This document shows, piece by piece, positions 1,732 to 60,176 of a stretch of DNA of 64,000 bases. The stretch lies in NCBI RefSeq assembly GCF_013315695.1, contig NZ_CP054353.1, one strand, 5' to 3'. Position 1 is the stretch's first letter. Each line of letters starts with the position of its first letter. The DNA is from Escherichia coli. Its GTDB lineage: Bacteria; Pseudomonadota; Gammaproteobacteria; Enterobacterales; Enterobacteriaceae. The position numbers and the translations under genes are program-made. Below the pieces are notes generated by a model, which was not told the origin of the DNA, did not search any database, and saw only the letters and a list, made by a program, of their open reading frames with translations.

Positions 1732-2622
1732 TTAAACTCGGTGAATCACGTTTTGTTCGTCAATAAACATGCAGCGATTCCTTCCGGTTTGCTTACCCTC
1801 ATACATTGCCCGGTCCGCTCTTCCAATGACCACATCCAGAGGCTCTTCAGGAAATGCGCGACTCACACCTGCTGTCACGGTAATGTTGATATGCCCTTCA
1901 GAATGTGTGATGGCATGGTTATCGACTAACTGGCAAATTCTGATACCTGCACGACATGCTTCTTCATCATTAGCCGCTTTGACAATAATGATAAATTCTT
2001 CGCCACCGTAGCGATAAACCGTTTCGTAATCGCGCGTCCAACTGGCTAAGTAAGTTGCCAGGGTGCGTAATACTACATCGCCGATTAAATGCCCGTAGGT
2101 ATCATTAACCAATTTAAATCGGTCAATATCCAACAACATTAAATAAAGATTCAGAGGATCAGCATTGCGTAACTGATGATCGAAGGATTCATCAAGAACC
2201 CGACGACCCGGCAATCCCGTCAGAACATCCATATTGCTACGGATCGTCAGCAAATAAATTTTGTAATCGGTTAATGCCGCAGTAAAAGAAAGCAACCCTT
2301 CCTGAAAAGCGTCGAAATGCGCGTCCTGCCAGTGATTTTCAACAATAGCCAGCATTAATTCCCGACCACAGTTATGCATATGTTGATGGGCAGAATCCAT
2401 TAGCCGAACGTAAGGTAATTCATCGTTATCGAGTGGCCCCAGATGATCAATCCACCGACCAAACTGGCACAGTCCATAAGAATGGTTATCCGTTATTTCT
2501 GGCTTACTGGCATCTCTCGCGACCACGCTGTGAAACATACTTACCAGCCACTGGTAGTGGGCATCGATAGCCTTATTGAGATTTAACAAGATGGCATCAA
2601 TTTCCGTTGTCTTCTTGATCAT
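1732..2622 (-). CDS. dgcZ: zinc-sensing diguanylate cyclase DgcZ (YdeH), GGDEF domain
   Basis: RYGGEEF motif in the C-terminal half; 296 aa when started at MIKKTTEIDAILLN; synteny. Confidence 0.9.
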   Translation of the reverse strand: MIKKTTEIDAILLNLNKAIDAHYQWLVSMFHSVVARDASKPEITDNHSYGLCQFGRWIDHLGPLDNDELPYVRLMDSAHQHMHNCGRELMLAIVENHWQDAHFDAFQEGLLSFTAALTDYKIYLLTIRSNMDVLTGLPGRRVLDESFDHQLRNADPLNLYLMLLDIDRFKLVNDTYGHLIGDVVLRTLATYLASWTRDYETVYRYGGEEFIIIVKAANDEEACRAGIRICQLVDNHAITHSEGHINITVTAGVSRAFPEEPLDVVIGRADRAMYEGKQTGRNRCMFIDEQNVIHRV

Positions 2623-2876
2623 TGCCACTCCTTTTTCACAGTTCCTTGTGCGCGCTATTCTAACGGGAGAAAAGCAAAATTACGTCAATATTTTCATAGA
2701 AATCCGAAGTTATGAGCCATCTCTGAGATAACATTGTGATTTAAAACAAAATCAGCAGATAAAAAAGTGTTTAATTCTATAAATTAACTCTGCATTATCG
2801 CAATTAAAAGGATGACAAATAGCATAACCCAATACCCTAATGGCCCAGTAGTTCAGGCCATCAGGCTAATTTATTT

Positions 2877-3269
2877 TTATTTCTGCAAATGAGTGACCCG
2901 AACGACGGCCGGCGCGCTTTTCTTATCCAGACTGCCGCTAATGTTGATCATCTGGTCCGGCTGAACTTCTCGTCCATCAAAGACGGCCGCAGGAATAACA
3001 ACATTAATTTCACCGCTCTTATCGCGAAAAACGTAACGGTCCTCTCCTTTGTGAGAAATCAAATTACCGCGTAGTGAAACCGAAGCGCCATCGTGCATGG
3101 TTTTTGCGAAATCAACGGTCATTTTTTTTGCATCGTCGGTTCCGCGATAGCCATCTTCTATTGCATGAGGCGGCGGTGGCGCTGCATCCTGTTTTAAACC
3201 GCCCGGGTCATCTGCCAACGCATAAGGCATGACAAGAAAACTTGCTAATACAATGGCCTGAAATTTCAT
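2877..3269 (-). CDS. ydeI: periplasmic OB-fold (YgiW/BOF family) protein YdeI
   Basis: 130-aa ORF with N-terminal signal peptide ([19 protein letters not shown]); synteny. Confidence 0.8.
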
Positions 3270-3634
3270 ACTGACTCCTTAATTGCGTTTGGTTTGACTT
3301 ATTAAGTCTGGTTGCTATTTTTATAATTGCCAAATAAGATTACTGCCAATTGTTATAAGGCATTTAAAATCAGGCAACTAGCTGTCAAATATTCAGAGAA
3401 TTTAACTCACTAAAGTTAAGAAGAAGATTAAAGAGTCTTAAACATATTTCAGAATAATCAGATTTATAAATTTGAAAATTATTATAACGGAAGGGTATAC
3501 AAAAAAAGTAATTTTGCTGGCGACTGCGAAACGGCATTCGCATTAGCGGTGAAGTTTGCCCTCGCCCAGCTGCTGCAATTACTGCTATAACGAGGCTGGT
3601 CTGGCGATAAATCCAGGCCAGCCATTGGTTGTGT

Positions 3635-6651: not shown

Positions 6652-7338
6652 ATGACCGTCGAAACGCAACTTAATCCCACACAGCCTGTCAATCAGCAGA
6701 TTTATCGTATTCTTCGTCGCGACATTGTCCATTGCCTGATTGCTCCAGGCACACCGTTGTCGGAAAAAGAAGTTTCTGTTCGTTTCAATGTGTCACGCCA
6801 GCCGGTTCGTGAAGCCTTTATTAAACTGGCGGAAAACGGTCTGATTCAAATTCGTCCGCAGCGTGGCAGCTACGTCAACAAAATTTCCATGGCCCAGGTG
6901 CGCAACGGCAGTTTTATCCGTCAGGCCATTGAGTGCGCGGTGGCGCGTCGGGCGGCGAGCATGATTACCGAAAGCCAGTGCTACCAACTGGAACAAAATC
7001 TTCACCAGCAACGCATTGCCATTGAGCGCAAGCAACTGGATGATTTTTTTGAACTTGATGACAACTTCCATCAACTCCTGACGCAGATTGCCGACTGTCA
7101 ACTGGCGTGGGATACCATTGAGAACCTGAAAGCGACCGTTGATCGCGTGCGCTATATGAGTTTCGACCACGTTTCTCCACCAGAAATGCTGTTACGCCAG
7201 CATCTTGAGATTTTCTCTGCCCTGCAAAAACGTGATGGCGATGCGGTAGAACGTGCAATGACGCAACATTTGCAGGAAATCAGCGAATCCGTGCGCCAGA
7301 TCCGCCAGGAAAACAGCGACTGGTTTAGCGAAGAGTAG
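6652..7338 (+). CDS. ydfH: GntR-family transcriptional regulator
   Basis: 228-aa ORF with N-terminal winged-HTH region and FCD-like C-terminal domain; synteny. Confidence 0.8.
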
Positions 7339-7726: not shown

Positions 7727-7757
7727 AATGCCGCCGATGGCGGCATTGCTTTTTTTA
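7727..7757. terminator. putative bidirectional rho-independent terminator between ydfZ and ydfI
   Basis: aatgccgcc gat ggcggcatt hairpin flanked by a T-run; ydfZ and ydfI are convergent. Confidence 0.5.
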
Positions 7758-9215
7758 CTTCACGGAATATTTCGCCACGGTCGCTTTCGCACCATGCGCT
7801 AATAAAGACAAGTACGCTTCCGTCACTTTTGCAGTAAACAAGCTATTGTCTGGCAAATCATCACCAAAGATCGCCTTAATCGCCAGCAATGACTGGACGC
7901 GCGCTTTCCCTTCGGCACTACTTTGTACAGCCTTCTGAATAACAGGTAACAGTGGGTCACTGATTTCTATCGGATTTCCCTGTTCATCAACACCACCGAC
8001 ATAACGCATCCAACCTGCGACGCCCAGCGCCAGCAGATCGAACTTGCTGTCATGCGCCAGATGCCAGCGAACAGAATCCAACATCCGCTGTGGCAATTTC
8101 TGGCTGCCATCCATAGCAATCTGCCAGGTTCGATGACGTAGCGCCGGGTTGCTATAGCGTTCAATTAATCGGTTAGCGTAATCTTGCAAATCAACGCCCT
8201 GCACTTTCAACGTCGGCGCTTGTTCCTGCAACATCAAGGCATACGCTGCATGACGATAATGTTCATCTTCCATGCAGTCATTAATGTGCTGATATCCGGC
8301 AAGATAACCCAGATACGCCAGGAATGAATGACTGCCGTTGAGCATGCGCAACTTCATCTCTTCATAAGGCAGCACATCACTAACCAGTTCGGCTCCCGCT
8401 TTTTCCCATTCCGGACGTCCGGCAACAAAGTTATCTTCTATTACCCACTGGCGGAAAGGTTCACAGGCAACGCCAGCAGGATCGCGCACACCGGTAAGTT
8501 GTTCGATTTTCGTCAGCATATCCTCTGTCACTGCGGGCACAATACGGTCCACCATTGTTGATGGGAAAGTCACGTTTTCTTCGATCCATTGTGCCAGTTT
8601 TACATCAACAGCTTGCGCGTAGGAAGTGACAACGTCACGCATAACATGACCGTTTTCTGGCATGTTGTCACATGACATGACGGTAAATGCGGGAAGTCCT
8701 GCCGCTTTACGGCGAGCCAGCGCCTCGACAATCACCCCTGTTGCAGTTTTCGGCTGGTGGGGATTTTGAACGTCGGCAACGACCATCGGGTGATCGAGCA
8801 TTAACTGTCCGGTCGCCGGAGAGTGGAAATACCCTTTTTCGGTGATTGTCAGAGAGACAATCGCGATTTGCGGTTCACACATCGCAGCCAACACGGTTTC
8901 TAAGCCATCAATCTGTACGTGCAAGGCTTTTTTAACGACGCCAACGACGCGAGCCGTCCACGCATCGGCCGACATTTCCGCAACGGTATAAAGATTATCT
9001 TGCTGTTGTAAATCGGCAATTTGCTGTTCGCCGCCGATTAAATTGACCTCATAATATCCCCAGTCACTGAAATGTTTTGTAGCAAGAATATCGGCATACA
9101 CGCCCTGATGCGCACGGTGAAATGCACCAAAGCCTAAATGAACAATTCTTGGGGCCAGGTTATTACGATCATAAACAGGGAGCGTCGCTTTTGCTGATAA
9201 CAAATTATTTCCCAT
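7755..9215 (-). CDS. ydfI: mannitol/fructuronate dehydrogenase-family oxidoreductase
   Basis: 486-aa ORF, long-chain mannitol dehydrogenase family by sequence character; synteny. Confidence 0.8.
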
Positions 9216-9303
9216 AACAATTCCTTAAATATAAATATGGCAAGCTACATGTTTTGTTATATGAATAAAAATCCCCTCTCCGGTAAGAGAAGGGATTGAG
9301 GAT

Positions 9304-10587
9304 TTAAAGACTTCTGGAAGGTTGCGCAGCTCTGACAACACGAAGTTGATCTTCCGCAGCGTCTTCCAGCGCACTTAAATCACGGTCTTTCACTTCTGGC
9401 ATTTTCAGCGCAGAGATTAAACCAATCACTGAATATGCCATGATCATAATGGCGATCGGATACCAGGATTCCGTCATGGTGCAGAAAATACCCGCCAGGA
9501 TAGGACCAAAACCGGAAGCGATAAGACCACCAATTTCTTTAGAAATAGCCATCCGGGTAAAGCGGTTTTTACAGCCGAACATTTCTGCCATGGTAATGTT
9601 TTCCAGAGCAAATAATCCCAGCACCGCACAGTTATGAATCACAATCAGTGCAACCATAATGGTGCTCGGGGCATAGCTTTTATCTACGATGATAGAAAGC
9701 ATTGGCCACGCCAGCACAATCGCAGAGGTATTCATAATAATATACGGGATCCGGCGACCTATTTTATCGGATAACCAACCAAGGAACGGAATGGTCATAA
9801 AGCCGAGAATCGAACTGATCATCAATGCATCTGTTGGAATTGCTTTGTTAAACAATAACGTCTGCACTAAATAGCCTGCAAGGAAAGTCTGAATTAAACC
9901 GGAGTTACCAGCCTGACCAAAACGCAGCCCTGTTGCCAGCCAGAAGGATTTGCTCTGGAACATGCTACCAGCAGGTGCAGGTTTTGCTGTCGGTTGGTTG
10001 CTGTCGTTAACCTTCTCAAAGACCGGGCTTTCTTTCAGATTCATACGCAACCAGATAGCAAAGACCATCACGACAACGCTCGCCAGGAACGGTATACGCC
10101 ATCCCCACGCCAGCAGTTCCTCTTTACTGAGAATGAAGAACATAAAGGCCCAGATTGCCGTTGCGCTTAAGGTTCCGCAGTTAGTTCCCATAGCCACAAA
10201 TGAGGAGATAATTCCGCGCTTACCTTTTGGCGCATATTCCGCCAGCATCGTACCGGCACCGGAAATTTCCGCGCCTGCCCCCAGCCCCTGAATAATACGC
10301 AGCGTCACCAGCAAAATTGGCGCAAACACACCAATTTGTGCATAGGTCGGCAGCACACCAATTAAGGTGGTACAGATCCCCATCATAGTTATGGTAATAA
10401 AGAGCACTTTTTTACGCCCGATTCTGTCGCCCATTTTGCCGAAAATAAATGCTCCGACAATACGCGCCACATAACCTGCACCGTAGGTTCCCATTGCCAG
10501 AATTAACGCCATTGCCGTTGATGATTCAGGAAAAAATATTTCATGAAACACTAACGCTGCGCCGAGCGAATATAACTGGAAATCCAT
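9304..10587 (-). pseudogene. ydfJ: MFS (metabolite:H+ symporter family) transporter YdfJ, 3' portion; 5' end displaced by prophage integration
   Basis: 427-aa ORF begins inside the conserved E-[FW]-[YF]-D-F N-terminal motif region; the missing 39 codons lie at the other prophage junction (55642..55761). Confidence 0.75.
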
Positions 10588-11922: not shown

Positions 11923-12513
11923 ATGTCTCGAATTTTTGCTTACTGTCGGATATCAACGCTGGATCAGACCACCGAAAATCAACGCCGGGAAATCGAAAGT
12001 GCAGGTTTTAAAATCAAACCTCAGCAAATAATCGAAGAACACATTAGCGGCTCAGCAGCAACCAGTGAGCGTCCTGGTTTTAACCGGTTGCTTGCTCGCC
12101 TGAAATGTGGTGATCAATTGATTGTGACAAAACTGGATCGCCTTGGTTGTAATGCAATGGATATCAGGAAAACAGTGGAACAACTGACCGAAACAGGTAT
12201 CAGAGTGCATTGCTTAGCATTGGGGGGCATTGACCTGACCAGTCCAACAGGAAAAATGATGATGCAAGTAATTTCAGCAGTCGCTGAATTTGAACGAGAC
12301 CTTTTACTTGAACGCACTCATTCCGGGATAGTAAGAGCCCGGGGCGCAGGGAAACGTTTTGGTCGACCACCTGTGTTAAATGAAGAACAGAAACAGGTGG
12401 TATTCGAACGGATTAAGTCAGGTGTAAGTATAAGTGCCATTGCCCGGGAATTCAAAACCTCGCGGCAAACCATTTTAAGAGCCAAAGCAAAACTTCAGAC
12501 ACCTGACATATAA
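11923..12513 (+). CDS. pinQ: serine recombinase (resolvase/invertase family)
   Basis: 196 aa; N-terminal catalytic domain with Ser in YCRISTLDQ; C-terminal HTH; position next to tail-fibre genes. Confidence 0.8.
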
Positions 12514-14246: not shown

Positions 14247-14522
14247 GTGGCTTCTGTTTCTATCAGCTGTCCCTCCTGTTCAGCTACTGACGGGGTGGTG
14301 CGTAACGGCAAAAGCACCGCCGGACATCAGCGCTATCTCTGCTCTCACTGCCGTAAAACATGGCAACTGCAGTTCACTTACACCGCTTCTCAACCCGGTA
14401 CGCACCAGAAAATCATTGATATGGCCATGAATGGCGTTGGATGCCGGGCAACAGCCCGCATTATGGGCGTTGGCCTCAACACGATTTTACGTCACTTAAA
14501 AAACTCAGGCCGCAGTCGGTAA
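14247..14522 (+). CDS. insA: IS1 InsA
   Basis: 91-aa [26 protein letters not shown]... (zinc-finger InsA). Confidence 0.9.
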
Positions 14523-14944
14523 CCTCGCGCATACAGCCGGGCAGTGACGTCATCGTCTGCGCGGAAATGGACGAACAGTGGGGCTATGTCGGGGCTAAAT
14601 CGCGCCAGCGCTGGCTGTTTTACGCGTATGACAGGCTCCGGAAGACGGTTGTTGCGCACGTATTCGGTGAACGCACTATGGCGACGCTGGGGCGTCTTAT
14701 GAGCCTGCTGTCACCCTTTGACGTGGTGATATGGATGACGGATGGCTGGCCGCTGTATGAATCCCGCCTGAAGGGAAAGCTGCACGTAATCAGCAAGCGA
14801 TATACGCAGCGAATTGAGCGGCATAACCTGAATCTGAGGCAGCACCTGGCACGGCTGGGACGGAAGTCGCTGTCGTTCTCAAAATCGGTGGAGCTGCATG
14901 ACAAAGTCATCGGGCATTATCTGAACATAAAACACTATCAATAA
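14441..14944 (+). CDS. insB: IS1 InsB
   Basis: 167-aa ORF overlapping insA in the -1 frame, typical IS1 arrangement. Confidence 0.9.
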
Positions 14945-53991: not shown

Positions 53992-54063
53992 TGTTCAACT
54001 GTCGCCGGTTGTGACTGGTATTCTGCAACCGGCGCTCGTCTGATGTAAGAGATAAAGAAATCG

Positions 54064-54315
54064 ATGAGCGAAGTAATCATGATTGTCTCTCCCGGCAAAT
54101 GGGTATCCGAAGAGCAGTTAATTGCGCTGAAAGGAATAAAAAAAGGTACGTTAAAAAAGGCCCGGGAAAAATCGTTTATGGAAGGAAGGGAATATAAGCA
54201 TGTCGCTCATGACGGTATGCCATGGGATAACAGTCCATGCTTTTACAACCTGGAAGAAATTGATCGCTGGATTGAGCGCCAGGCATCAGCGAGACCAAGA
54301 CGTCATCTTACTTGA
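54064..54315 (+). CDS. putative excisionase/recombination directionality factor
   Basis: 83-aa ORF immediately upstream of the integrase, same strand. Confidence 0.5.
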   Translation: MSEVIMIVSPGKWVSEEQLIALKGIKKGTLKKAREKSFMEGREYKHVAHDGMPWDNSPCFYNLEEIDRWIERQASARPRRHLT

Positions 54316-54349
54316 CTAAAAACCACACTAACTAATGAGAGAAGTTGAA

Positions 54350-55630
54350 ATGAAATATCCGACAGGCGTGGAAAACCATGGAGGGAAATTACGTATCTGG
54401 TTTGTTTATAAAGACGTAAGAGTCAGGGAAAATCTGGGGGTTCCTGACACAGCAAAAAACAGGCGCGTTGCAGGTGAACTACGCTCCTCTGTTTGTTACG
54501 CAATAAAAACTGGTGTTTTCGACTATGCAAAACAGTTTCCCTCCTCACGCAATCTGGAAAAATTTGGTGAGGCCCGACAAGATTTAACCATAAAAGAACT
54601 GGCTGAAAAATTTCTGGCACTGAAAGAAACTGAAGTCGCCAAAACATCACTCAACACATACCGTGCCGTCATCAAAAATATCCTGAGCATAATCGGTGAA
54701 AAAAATCTTGCCTCATCGATTAATAAAGAAAAATTACTGGAGGTTCGTAAAGAGTTACTGACTGGATACCAGATCCCCAAAAGTAACTATATTGTTACAC
54801 AACCAGGGAGATCGGCTGTAACTGTAAATAATTACATGACAAATCTTAACGCCGTGTTCCAGTTTGGTGTTGATAACGGTTACCTGGCAGATAATCCGTT
54901 TAAGGGGATCTCGCCATTAAAGGAATCAAGAACCATTCCGGATCCTCTTTCGCGGGAAGAATTTATCCGTCTTATCGATGCGTGCAGAAATCAGCAAGCA
55001 AAAAATTTATGGTGTGTTTCTGTTTATACTGGAGTTCGCCCTGGTGAGCTGTGTGCACTTGGATGGGAGGACATAGATCTGAAAAATGGAACAATGATGA
55101 TCAGGAGAAATTTAGCAAAAGACCGTTTCACGGTACCAAAAACACAGGCGGGAACCAATCGGGTCATTCATCTTATTAAGCCAGCAATCGACGCTCTCCG
55201 GAGTCAGATGACATTAACGAGACTGAGCAAAGAGCATATCATTGATGTTCACCTCAGAGAGTATGGCAGAACAGAAAAACAAAAATGCACCTTTGTTTTT
55301 CAACCTGAAATGTCAGCGAGAGTAAAAAATTATGGTGACCATTTTACCGTTGACTCAATAAGGCAGATGTGGGACGCAGCGATAAAACGTGCCGGACTCC
55401 GCCATCGAAAATCATATCAGTCGAGACATACTTATGCCTGCTGGTCGCTGACAGCTGGTGCTAACCCGGCATTTATAGCAAACCAGATGGGCCATGCAGA
55501 TGCGCAAATGGTATTTCAGGTATACGGAAAATGGATGTCTGAAAACAATAATGCACAGGTAGCTTTGTTAAATACACAGTTAAGCGAGTTTGCCCCAACC
55601 ATGCCCCATAACGAAGCAATGAAAAATTAA
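54350..55630 (+). CDS. intQ: tyrosine recombinase (phage integrase)
   Basis: 426 aa from MKYPTGVENHGGKLRIWFVYKD...; C-terminal catalytic region (...RHTYACWSLTAGANPAFIANQMGHADAQMVFQVYGKW...); adjacent to att junction. Confidence 0.8.
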   Translation: MKYPTGVENHGGKLRIWFVYKDVRVRENLGVPDTAKNRRVAGELRSSVCYAIKTGVFDYAKQFPSSRNLEKFGEARQDLTIKELAEKFLALKETEVAKTSLNTYRAVIKNILSIIGEKNLASSINKEKLLEVRKELLTGYQIPKSNYIVTQPGRSAVTVNNYMTNLNAVFQFGVDNGYLADNPFKGISPLKESRTIPDPLSREEFIRLIDACRNQQAKNLWCVSVYTGVRPGELCALGWEDIDLKNGTMMIRRNLAKDRFTVPKTQAGTNRVIHLIKPAIDALRSQMTLTRLSKEHIIDVHLREYGRTEKQKCTFVFQPEMSARVKNYGDHFTVDSIRQMWDAAIKRAGLRHRKSYQSRHTYACWSLTAGANPAFIANQMGHADAQMVFQVYGKWMSENNNAQVALLNTQLSEFAPTMPHNEAMKN

Positions 55631-55641
55631 TTTAATATTTA

Positions 55642-55761
55642 TCAAATAGTTAACACGCATGACTCTTGAAATCCATAAAATTCAAGCGCAGTGCCCAGCC
55701 ATCCCGATACTGCTGCTTTCACCAAATCCTTAGTGCTTCTTTCGTGTTTTTCTATTGTCAT
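55642..55761 (-). pseudogene. ydfJ: 5' fragment of ydfJ (first about 30 codons) at the right prophage junction
   Basis: MTIEKHERSTKDLVKAAVSGWLGTALEFYGFQ... then phage-derived codons; complements the 5'-truncated ydfJ at 9304..10587. Confidence 0.7.
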
Positions 55762-55818
55762 AATGGTTATCTCTAAAAAAGAGGTAAGATGCGTACTACT
55801 TACTCGCCGTTATTGGTA

Positions 55819-56838
55819 TTATTCAGAAAAAGTGAGTAAGACTTTGCAGCAATGCTTTTGATCCTGTTCAAATAAACTAATGGCATCAGCAACATGCTGG
55901 AAATCAAACGTATGGGTAATTAGTTTTTCTGGTTTAATTAACCCTTTACTTAACCAGTCGATAACGACCGGGAATTTATTTGCATTTAAGCGTGAAGAGA
56001 AAATAGAGAGTTCTTTTCCGGTAATTCCTTGCTGAATCACTTCAGACGGTTCACTGGAGAAGCCCATCAATACAATACGTGCCGCTGGAGAAGCCAGCGT
56101 TACGGCTTCTTTCAGGATTGAAGGATGACAAGCCGCATCGATAATTAATGTCGGCTTTATGCCTTTTTCAGCGAAAATCTCGCCAAGCGGTGTCTGGCTG
56201 TTATTAATCGCCCAGTCTGCCCCGCTCTCTTTCGCTTTTTCCAGTCGTTCATCAATGCGATCGGCAACAATCACATTCTTAACGTTATAGACGCCTTTTA
56301 ATACCTGAACGATCGTCAGGCCGATTGGACCTGCACCGTAAACCAGAACGGTATCATTTTCAGTCGGTTGACCATGACCGGTTACGTTCGCCGCAATGGT
56401 AAAAGGTTCGATCATCACCGCATATTGATCGGCCACTGCTTCAGGAATTTTCCACGCATTTTTTGCCGGCACCACGGCATATTCACTGAAACCACCGTCA
56501 GCGTGCACACCTAATACAGCCAGTGTCGTACAAACGTTCGGCTTACCTATAGAGCACGGATAGCAATGCCCACAGCTGACCACCGGATCGACAGCAACGC
56601 GTTCACCGACTCTGTCGCTTTCCACGCCTTCACCCACTGCATCAATGACGCCAAAGAATTCATGTCCAATGACGCGCGGATATTTCGCAAAAGGATTATG
56701 CCCACGATAAATATGGCTATCTGAACCACAAATTCCGGCAAGTTTCACTTTTACTCGTACTTCACCAGCTGACGGGGTGGGTATTTCGCGTTCGATAATT
56801 GCCAGTTGATTCGGTTTTTCAATTAAAATGCTTTTCAT
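55819..56838 (-). CDS. rspB: starvation-sensing protein RspB (Zn-dependent medium-chain dehydrogenase)
   Basis: 339 aa from MKSILIEKPNQ...; GHEFFGVIDAVG and GAGPIG motifs. Confidence 0.9.
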   Translation of the reverse strand: MKSILIEKPNQLAIIEREIPTPSAGEVRVKVKLAGICGSDSHIYRGHNPFAKYPRVIGHEFFGVIDAVGEGVESDRVGERVAVDPVVSCGHCYPCSIGKPNVCTTLAVLGVHADGGFSEYAVVPAKNAWKIPEAVADQYAVMIEPFTIAANVTGHGQPTENDTVLVYGAGPIGLTIVQVLKGVYNVKNVIVADRIDERLEKAKESGADWAINNSQTPLGEIFAEKGIKPTLIIDAACHPSILKEAVTLASPAARIVLMGFSSEPSEVIQQGITGKELSIFSSRLNANKFPVVIDWLSKGLIKPEKLITHTFDFQHVADAISLFEQDQKHCCKVLLTFSE

Positions 56839-56849
56839 TATCTTACTCC

Positions 56850-57860
56850 TTACCAGTTCCACAGCGTGCCATCTTCCAGACGTGCGACTGGCAGATAAGC
56901 AGGTTCATAGGGATATTTCGCCGCCAGCTTTTCATCGAATTCGATGCCAAGACCCGGTTTGTCTCCCGGATGCATATAGCCGTTATCAAAAGTCCAGTTG
57001 TGCGGGAAGACTTCAAGCATTTGTTCGGAATAACCCATGTATTCCTGGACACCGAAATTGGGGACCCACAGATCAAAGTGCAGCGCCGCAGCCATGCAGA
57101 CTGGCGACAAATCGGAAGGACCGTGTGAGCCAGTACGTACCTGATACAGCGAAGCAAAATCGGCAATCCGGCGCATACCGGTAATCCCCCCCGCGTGAGT
57201 CAGCGTGGTGCGGATATAGTCGATAAGTTGTTCTTCAATCAGCTGTTTGCAGTCCCAGATGCTGTTGAAGACTTCACCCACTGCAATTGGCGTGACGGTG
57301 TGTTGGCGAATCAGGCGGAAACACTCCTGGTTTTCCGCAGGCGTCGGGTCTTCCATCCAGAACATGCGATAATCTTCAATGCTTTTACCAAAGCGCGCCG
57401 CTTCAATAGGCGTTAAGCGATGGTGCATGTCATGCAGCAAATGTTCATTAAAACCAAACTTGTTACGTACCGCGTCAAACAATTTCGGCATGAAATCGAG
57501 GTATTTCTCCGTCGACCACAGCTGCTCTTCCGGCCACTGTCCTTTGGTTGCGGGTTCATAAGCCAGACCTTTACCTTTCGACATGCCATAGGTGGTTTTC
57601 ATACCAGGGATTCCGCACTGCACGCGGATGGCTTTGAATCCCAGCTCCTGATGACGGGCATAATCATCCAGAGCTTCATCAATACTGTGACCGGTGAGCT
57701 GCGGACAAAGGTGATCCTGCAAATAAGAGGCCACGGAAAGCTCACGTCCATTTAGGGTGGCATCCCCAAGGCCCGTAATACCGTCCTCAGTGGTGATTTT
57801 TAATGTGACGAAATTACGCCCCGGACAGGTAACAAAAACTTCAGCCTTTACGATCTTCAT
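56850..57860 (-). CDS. rspA: starvation-sensing protein RspA (enolase-superfamily dehydratase), apparently shortened by an internal in-frame deletion
   Basis: 336 aa from [17 protein letters not shown]...; N-terminal capping domain only about 55 aa before the barrel region (...LCPQL|[26 protein letters not shown]...). Confidence 0.8.
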
Positions 57861-58065
57861 GTTCGATTCCTTGCATCGCTTGTCGTGATGCATGAAATCT
57901 ACGCAACTGAGCTACTACCATACAAGTATGAAGATCAAAAAAAGCCGGAGTGATCACAAAAAAAGGCGTATATTTGCGCCGTGAATGGTTGACAAAAGAT
58001 GAAATAGAATACCTTTTGTCAGCTGACACTTCCTCGTATCTTATTGATAAAGTGGATTTATGTTC

Positions 58066-58392
58066 CTACGTGCGCCCCCAGCCCGCAACAATGATCAACA
58101 TGCCGCAAAGCGCAATCAACGCCCCCGTCCAGTCATAAAGAGTCAGTTTCACTCCATCCACAACGCGCAGCCAAATCAACGCCGTGCAGACATAAACGCC
58201 ACCATAAGCCGCGTAAACACGCCCACTCGCCGCAGGATGCAACGTTAACAACCAGACAAACAGCGCCAGTGAAATCCCTGCCGGAAGCAACAGCCAGATA
58301 CTGGCGTTTCGCTTCAACCACAGCCAGGGCAAAAAGCACCCAATAATTTCACACAGCGCAGTAGCAAAAAATAGTAACGTTGTTTTAATCAT
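58066..58392 (-). CDS. ynfA: UPF0060 small membrane protein YnfA
   Basis: 108 aa from [26 protein letters not shown]... Confidence 0.85.
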
Positions 58393-58526
58393 CTTTGTCA
58401 CTTATTGACATCATGTATAGTTATAGGACGACATAATATCATCAATATAAACACCCTCCTTGAACGTTTTGCGTTCGCAGTGGATGGTGTAGAATCAGCT
58501 TTAATCATTCATACAGGGAATGAATT

Positions 58527-58868
58527 ATGAAAATCACTCTCAGCAAACGAATCGGCCTGCTCGCTTTTCTGCTGCCTTGCGCACTGGCATTGAGCACAAC
58601 TGTTCGTGCCGAAACTAACAAACTGGTGATTGAGTCTGGCGACAGTGCACAAAGCCGCCAGCACGCCGCTATGGAAAAAGAGCAATGGAATGACACGCGC
58701 AATCTGCGCCAGAAAGTGAATAAACGCACTGAAAAAGAGTGGGATAAAGCCGACGCCGCTTTTGATAACCGCGATAAATGTGAGCAAAGCGCCAACATCA
58801 ATGCCTACTGGGAGCCAAATACTTTGCGCTGCCTGGACCGTCGAACTGGCCGCGTTATTACCCCCTAA
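58527..58868 (+). CDS. ynfB: secreted protein YnfB
   Basis: 113 aa; signal peptide [28 protein letters not shown]. Confidence 0.85.
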
Positions 58869-58902
58869 CCTGTTATTGATTTAAGGAATGTAAGGACACG
58901 TT

Positions 58903-59463
58903 ATGCCAAGCGCCCACAGTGTTAAGCTACGCCCGCTGGAGCGTGAAGATTTACGCTATGTACATCAACTCGACAATAACGCCAGTGTGATGCGTTACTG
59001 GTTTGAGGAACCCTACGAAGCCTTTGTTGAACTCTCTGATCTGTACGATAAGCATATTCACGATCAGAGCGAACGGCGCTTTGTGGTGGAATGTGACGGC
59101 GAAAAAGCCGGTCTGGTGGAGCTGGTGGAAATTAACCATGTTCATCGCCGCGCAGAATTTCAGATAATTATCTCCCCGGAATATCAGGGGAAAGGTCTGG
59201 CAACGCGTGCCGCAAAATTAGCAATGGACTATGGCTTCACCGTTCTCAATCTCTATAAGCTGTATCTGATCGTCGATAAAGAGAATGAAAAAGCGATTCA
59301 CATTTACCGCAAGCTTGGCTTTACGGTTGAAGGTGAATTGATGCATGAGTTCTTTATTAATGGTCAATATCGGAATGCCATTCGCATGTGCATATTCCAG
59401 CATCAGTATCTGGCAGAGCACAAAACACCGGGTCAGACTCTCCTGAAGCCGACCGCACAATAG
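58903..59463 (+). CDS. speG: spermidine N1-acetyltransferase (GNAT)
   Basis: 186 aa; [41 protein letters not shown]... Confidence 0.9.
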
Positions 59464-59465
59464 CA

Positions 59466-60176
59466 TTAATAATAATCGATAGTATTTTTGATGGTGTAAA
59501 CCCGTTCGACGGCGGGTTTTACTCCTTCATCAACAATGATTAGCTGACAGTCTACCGGATTGGCGTAACTGTCATATTCACAGCTCTGTTTTACATTACC
59601 AACCCGTTGATTATTCAGTAAAGTAACCGCTGTGTAATCTAATTTTTTGATCGGATCCGTTGATGGCGTAGCGCTAACAGATAATGTTTTGTCGTTACTT
59701 TTCGTGGTTTTACCCAGCGGATAACCCTGATCATCATAGCGATATTCCATCTGCATCTGTTTGCTGCTGGCTTTAATCACAAAGCCATTATCATCGGTTT
59801 CCCAACTCACCCCGGCAGAAGGTAATTCTGCTAGCTGGCATTTTCCCTGCAAACGAACTCTTTTCTCCAATGTCTGGGCATCACGGTAATAATTGGCGTC
59901 CAGTACCAGGGCAACCACGGTATTATTTTCCAGATCCAGTAATTCGAGAGAATCAAAACAGCCTTCTTCCGACAAAGTCCCCGAAACACGTTTCGTCACT
60001 TCACCTTGCTCATCCATTAATGTCTGAGTGAAATCTTTTACGGGACCACGCAGCGGATCAAAATCGAATTCATTAGAGAAACTGGCCATCTCCGGGGTAA
60101 ATGAAAGTGTTACCTCTGTGCGGTCACATCCTGTGAGGAATATCGCGAGTAAGCATGGCAGTAATTTGTATTTCAC
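59466..60176 (-). CDS. ynfC: lipoprotein YnfC
   Basis: 236 aa from a GTG start; lipobox LTGC in KYKLLPCLLAIFLTGCDRTEV. Confidence 0.8.
   Translation of the reverse strand: MKYKLLPCLLAIFLTGCDRTEVTLSFTPEMASFSNEFDFDPLRGPVKDFTQTLMDEQGEVTKRVSGTLSEEGCFDSLELLDLENNTVVALVLDANYYRDAQTLEKRVRLQGKCQLAELPSAGVSWETDDNGFVIKASSKQMQMEYRYDDQGYPLGKTTKSNDKTLSVSATPSTDPIKKLDYTAVTLLNNQRVGNVKQSCEYDSYANPVDCQLIIVDEGVKPAVERVYTIKNTIDYY

Follow-up and report, generated by a model that had tools for sequence, protein, structure and literature searches.

A rare 204-bp in-frame deletion in rspA of Escherichia coli, probably inactivating and still annotated as an intact protein

The rspA gene on the Escherichia coli contig NZ_CP054353.1 carries a 204-bp in-frame deletion. 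It is very probably a genuine, vertically inherited loss-of-function allele with one origin, independent of repeats. The product would lack residues 56–123, i.e. the helical half of the capping domain together with the putative first β-strand of the barrel, and annotation pipelines still call this presumably inactive allele an intact protein. RspA, named a "starvation-sensing protein", belongs to the enolase superfamily and is a low-efficiency D-mannonate dehydratase; its gene opens the rspAB operon. UxuA is the efficient D-mannonate dehydratase. RspA of strain CFT073 was reportedly characterized by Wichelecki and co-workers in 2014 as a low-efficiency D-mannonate dehydratase with a place in a cryptic L-gulonate pathway, its physiological role not being identified. 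We know of no established physiological role for RspA.

The window, that is, the whole stretch of DNA analysed, is 64,000 nucleotides long. The gene lies on the minus strand, with an ATG start at 57860 (MKIVKAEV) and a TAA stop at 56850–56852. An ATG further upstream, at 57893, would give a longer reading frame; RspA of reference genomes is annotated from the MKIV methionine. The features of the locus are as follows.

56850–57860, minus strand: rspA deletion allele (rspA Δ56-123), 336 codons and a TAA stop (open reading frame and translation).
57696–57697, minus strand: deletion junction GCAGCT/CACCGG, 204 bp absent between the two halves (alignment to the AF3 and K-12 alleles).
57697–57860, minus strand: N-terminal remnant kept, residues 1–55, with three β-strands and helix 40–55 of the capping domain (AlphaFold full-length model; Pfam).
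56853–57696, minus strand: kept part equal to full-length residues 124–404, from barrel helix 1 onward (alignments; Pfam MR_MLE_C).
57920–57929, minus strand: RspR operator core ATACTTGTAT in the rspA promoter, unchanged; one match within the window.
55819–56838, minus strand: rspB (Zn-dependent oxidoreductase), intact, starting 11 nt past the rspA stop codon.

The window protein is 336 aa in length, versus 404 aa for the reference WP_001295394.1 of K-12 and AF3; a preliminary description of this DNA had given 336 aa against about 400, and both lengths hold. Aligned to two full-length alleles (AF3 and K-12 MG1655), the DNA contains a single 204-bp gap and no further indel, which bears out the earlier reading of a clean in-frame loss of 68 codons rather than a frameshift. 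The junction is placed between 57697 and 57696, within two bases of the position near 57695 proposed before. It cuts codon 55 past the second base (phase 2), converting CTT to CTC with Leu55 kept. Residues I56–T123 (68 aa) are lost and the protein reads ...LCPQL/TGHS.... The lost piece has a GC content of 0.52, versus 0.51 for rspA. In all its 336 residues the window protein is 100% identical to WP_001295394.1 (AF3), and the 1,011 retained bases show no difference from AF3 rspA, as would be expected from a recent single deletion event in an allele of the AF3 type. The chain of PDB 4IL2 (RspA of E. coli CFT073, 426 aa including the tag) is matched in two stretches, query 1–55 to chain 23–77 and query 56–336 to chain 146–426, with 68 chain residues unmatched; besides the missing residues 56–123, the window protein is two substitutions away from it.

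The gene order ynfA-rspA-rspB with an RspR box upstream is the orthologous position of RspA; locus, promoter and box are those of E. coli RspA in general. The sequence from the box to the rspA ATG is identical to K-12 and AF3. The 200 bp upstream of rspA are those of AF3 except for one window-private SNP at 58052 (the minus strand has C, where AF3, K-12, MSB1_4I and six further loci with the deletion have T), located in the ynfA-rspA spacer 14 nt past the ynfA stop and well upstream of the RspR box. The box has the form ATACnnGTAT; RspR binds it and represses rspAB (PMC8249747). The truncated rspA should still be transcribed from this RspR-repressed promoter and translated in frame; a premature stop would not be expected, nor would polarity on rspB, since the deletion is in frame. 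The rspB product (339 aa) matches the NCBIfam equivalog NF007489 with 694.8 bits over positions 1–339 of 339, and its nucleotides are identical to those of AF3 rspB, in agreement with the earlier statement that rspB is intact. Rfam matches were not found in the interval 54,000–60,000, and promoter and terminator scans gave results at the level of shuffled sequence; a hidden RNA or other element near rspA was rejected as a candidate on these grounds.

Further genes of the region lie at the other end of the window.

6652–7338, plus strand: GntR-family regulator, 228 aa, rspR/ydfH (GntR-type matches; assigned by synteny only, ydfG adjoining).
7755–9215, minus strand: fructuronate reductase (NCBIfam NF011611, 650.6 bits).
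9304–10587, minus strand: MFS metabolite/H+ symporter (TIGR00883, 453.5 bits).

The genes at 7755–10587 are the remainder of a sugar-acid cluster, across a prophage from rspAB, and the regulator (rspR/ydfH by synteny) is split from rspAB by the same prophage of about 45 kb. The arrangement is that of the rspAB / rspR region in K-12 (PMC8249747). The prophage is large and lambdoid, extends over about 11,900–55,630 between a ydfJ-like transporter and rspB, and sits where K-12 has Qin. The prophage integrase lies at 54335–55630; a Pin-like serine recombinase (11923–12513) and an IS1 transposase fragment (14441–14944) are near the far end.

An outline of the general architecture, with the roles of both domains, is given in PMC9795676. 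The Pfam domain MR_MLE_N covers residues 13–110 of full-length RspA (121 bits, model positions 24–117) and residues 13–61 of the window protein (41 bits, model positions 24–73 of 117); MR_MLE_C is the same in both. The N-terminal α+β capping domain of the window protein is incomplete, MR_MLE_N being partial and three helices gone. An AlphaFold model of the full-length protein, built on an alignment of 30 homologues, has a mean pLDDT of 92 and TM scores of 0.97 versus crystal structure 4IL2 and 0.97 versus 2QJJ. It consists, in order, of strands 2–11, 17–24 and 29–33, helix 40–55, helices 63–73, 80–100 and 105–108, strand 117–122, helix 128–140 and strand 145–147, followed by the rest of the barrel. 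The deletion begins directly past helix 40–55 and stops just before helix 128–140; it removes the capping-domain helices 63–73, 80–100 and 105–108 together with strand 117–122. By strand count, and by homology to mandelate racemase, strand 117–122 would be strand β1 of the (β/α)7β barrel. Seven strands are retained, carrying R147, D212, E238, E264, R285, H314 and E341, and the eight-strand (β/α)7β barrel would be incomplete, strand 117–122 being deleted (AlphaFold model, checked against 4IL2). GHSIDEAL, formerly taken as the start of the barrel, is in fact the first barrel helix (128–140); strand 117–122 (VMVYCH) precedes it and lies inside the deletion. The earlier view that most of the capping domain is lost stands as to the loss, with its extent corrected to about half; the lesion probably also breaks the barrel, and so is probably worse than a deletion of the lid.

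The truncated protein, modelled with the same set of homologues, has a mean pLDDT of 80.8 and a pTM of 0.77. Its residues 56–102 (full-length 124–170) fall below pLDDT 50 with all secondary structure gone. This stretch of 47 residues comprises barrel helix 1 and strand 2 with Arg147 and Tyr159, and is mostly at pLDDT 85–96 in the full-length model. The drop in confidence is only suggestive of misfolding, AlphaFold being no predictor of stability. The Δ56-123 protein is expected to misfold or to have no properly formed active site. The allele would then be one of loss of function; the function of rspA is probably lost.

Conservation of the segment points the same way. Thirty full-length relatives, at 30–95% identity and taken from the hits of a search through 1.84 billion representative proteins, were aligned; none of the 30 lacks the deleted segment. 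Near-invariant columns inside the deletion are 11 of 36, namely G57, A85, A92, L93, W94, D95, P104, L108, G110, G111 and R114. The deletion of these 68 residues thus disrupts conserved, structurally essential sequence. A reference RspA of about 336 aa, which would have spoken against a deletion, was not found among the references (404 aa) or the homologues. Shared with the D-mannonate dehydratase of Novosphingobium aromaticivorans (2QJJ) and the ManD subgroup are the fold, the catalytic constellation, the metal ligands and the Arg/Tyr/His acid-base residues. All ManD members, both those with solved structures and the 30 sampled, have a complete N-terminal domain, whereas that of the window protein is incomplete.

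The retained part of the enzyme is unaltered in its active-site residues. By alignment R147, Y159, D212, H214, E238 and E264 are all present; D212, E238 and E264 are presumably the Mg2+ ligands and R147, Y159 and H214 presumably the acid/base residues. The window protein scores 566.2 bits against the NCBIfam ManD equivalog NF043051.1 (cutoff 550) and 633.4 bits against NF011654.0 (PRK15072; cutoff 430), in each case in two stretches split at the deletion. Annotation pipelines accept the truncated RspA because the ManD equivalog cutoff is cleared (566 versus 550). Full-length E. coli RspA has residues 56–123; the window protein, without them, is named by PGAP "D-galactonate dehydratase family protein", not RspA.

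The allele is rare among complete genomes. A search with the open reading frame matched 5,382 of 5,426 complete E. coli genomes. Among the full-coverage matches listed, a spread sample, all extend over 1,248 bp where the query has 1,044 bp, which means that these genomes still have the 204 bp. For the junction a 54-mer was used, with 27 bases on each side, from which a full-length allele cannot supply a 28-base seed. It was found in one of the 5,426 complete genomes, that of the Australian rectal swab isolate MSB1_4I (NZ_LR898874.1). The PGAP annotation there gives a "D-galactonate dehydratase family protein" of 336 aa, with no pseudogene flag. Over 12 kb, 11 mismatches separate the window from MSB1_4I. 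Across the flanking 6.1 kb, identity reaches 99.9% or more in five complete genomes (AF3, MSB1_4I, MS 21-1, OZ546925 and OZ546911). The junction is present in MSB1_4I alone of these five; MS 21-1, OZ546925 and OZ546911 are without it and AF3 is full length. The next-closest complete genomes, at 99.4%, include "ST648", IMT16316 and MS6198. The truncated rspA of MSB1_4I has an additional substitution, G247S (full-length G315S, beside the conserved His314; window-equivalent position 57122), which is consistent with relaxed constraint as a single case.

Beyond complete genomes, the exact 336-aa window protein occurs on 29 public contigs (53 index blocks; NCBI and ENA). Their sizes range from below 2 kb to more than 5 Mb, including the 5.16-Mb contig GCA_900448625.1; others are about 35–38 kb long, with SPAdes-style (NODE_...) and MEGAHIT-style (k119_...) names. 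Six carrier loci match the window base for base along about 5–7 kb, except at the SNP 58052. The truncated reading frame is open in all carrier contigs found. Presence of the junction in just one of 5,426 complete RefSeq genomes might suggest an artefact of sequencing or assembly, in which the assembler lost 204 bp that the organism still has. This reading has next to no probability: the same 336-aa product is on 29 contigs from NCBI and ENA with varied sizes and assembler names, the window is distinct from the MSB1_4I genome, and no repeat able to collapse an assembly is present. The many independent contigs with the same allele rule out an assembly artefact in practice. Since these contigs come from different assemblers and have identical flanks, the deletion is regarded as an inherited allele of a sublineage. 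The end of the prophage next to rspB varies: in the carrier GCA_018178295.1, 152 bp are absent at the integrase 3' end beside rspB and the integrase has 409 aa; in the carrier ERZ23880429 the sequence diverges beyond the integrase gene and the product has 466 aa. Because the prophage end differs among carriers, the sublineage has diversified since the deletion. The deletion would have arisen once, in a full-length allele identical to that of AF3, and the deletion allele would now be the mark of a small sublineage within one E. coli clone.

The event itself is best described as illegitimate and repeat-independent. Short direct repeats flanking the junction, proposed earlier as a thing to look for in a full-length allele, are absent there; direct repeats at the breakpoints were not found and microhomology at the junction is 0 bp. 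Slipped-strand deletion was rejected: the sole resemblance, TATTGGTCGC versus CACCGGTCAC (6 of 10), is in a register unable to give the observed product. Hairpin-mediated deletion was likewise rejected, single-stranded folds of either strand being no stabler than those of shuffled sequence (z −0.87 and −0.64). Close to the deletion ends there are two weak inverted repeats, which look like chance. The prior chance of an in-frame outcome is 1/3 for a random deletion.

Full-length RspA is highly uniform elsewhere in the species. K-12, AF3, 2015C-3905, LWY24 and MS14384 all encode the identical protein WP_001295394.1 despite 10–27 nucleotide differences. Between AF3 and K-12, rspA has 26 differing sites, every one of them synonymous (pS about 0.10, pN 0). 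On this comparison of alleles, full-length RspA is under strong purifying selection in E. coli elsewhere. Special conservation of the deleted 204 bp at the DNA level was considered, as AF3 and K-12 show 0 differences there, and was rejected, since the whole 5' half is evenly SNP-poor in eight alleles. In these eight alleles the 5' half has about 4 variable sites per 204 nt and full-length nucleotides 560–900 have up to 25 per 204 nt, nearly all synonymous; the uneven density may be a recombination patch.

Two other natural losses of rspA were found. In O157:H7 Sakai (RIMD 0509939; locus 2534–3282) the first 87 nt of rspA are left and abut a frameshifted prophage integrase, prophage sequence having taken the place of the remaining rspA and of rspB. 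The operon was lost independently here, at the same locus and beside a prophage integrase; the lesion is a gross truncation annotated as a pseudogene, whereas the window allele has an in-frame internal deletion. Strain 401656 has a nonsense mutation, Q54*, just one codon ahead of the window deletion's left breakpoint. It is likewise an independent inactivation, but a point mutation, and is flagged as a pseudogene by PGAP; the window deletion allele is not flagged. The present allele is the sole one of the three losses without an annotation flag.

Two further readings concern what the allele does. A functional short isoform, in which the truncated protein folds (e.g. with a rearranged barrel or a reduced lid) and keeps a dehydratase or regulatory role, draws on the structurally tidy ends of the deletion, from the end of helix 40–55 to just before helix 128–140, on the open reading frame in every contig found, and on features that speak against loss of function, namely the retained catalytic and metal-binding residues of the barrel and a ManD equivalog score still above the cutoff. 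An open frame among the carriers would also fit a recent neutral event. The isoform is quite improbable, given that the segment, with its 11 near-invariant positions, is present in all 30 diverse full-length relatives, that strand 117–122 (putative β1) is gone and the next 47 residues are without predicted structure, and that the G315S change beside His314 in MSB1_4I, although a single case, is consistent with relaxed constraint. In its strongest form, with the Δ56-123 protein alive as a lid-less or rearranged barrel kept for an altered role and the helix-to-helix in-frame geometry no accident, the proposal is very improbable indeed; if true, it might mean that substrates reach the active site differently, that the protein acts as a dominant negative on another enzyme of the enolase superfamily, or that it has a regulatory effect on stationary-phase signalling.

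Inactivation might instead be adaptive, the loss of RspA having been selected in the clone, for example since rspAB overexpression interferes with RpoS synthesis. A link of rspAB overexpression to RpoS is cited in PMC8249747, at least three independent losses of rspA are on record (the present allele, the O157:H7 truncation and Q54*), and the in-frame deletion spares rspB. Adaptive inactivation is nevertheless unlikely: the allele is rare (29 contigs, one of the five closest complete genomes), one third of random deletions are in frame anyway, and most E. coli keep a perfectly conserved protein. Given the strong purifying selection on full-length RspA elsewhere, its loss may carry some cost. 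Loss of function with neutral loss is preferred over both, as what appears to be ordinary strain-level gene decay.

The window thus probably represents a known gene with a rare, lineage-restricted, inactivating in-frame deletion, with no sign of a new kind of system. The deletion allele was already in public databases, unremarked. Deposited many times as an intact protein, it matters mainly for the quality of annotation: automated metabolic reconstructions would credit carriers with an enzyme that is most likely missing. RspA is identical across distant E. coli lineages, though it is not known to have an established physiological role. The carriers, as natural rspA knock-outs with rspB untouched and with AF3 as the full-length counterpart, would be convenient material for finding out what RspA is for.
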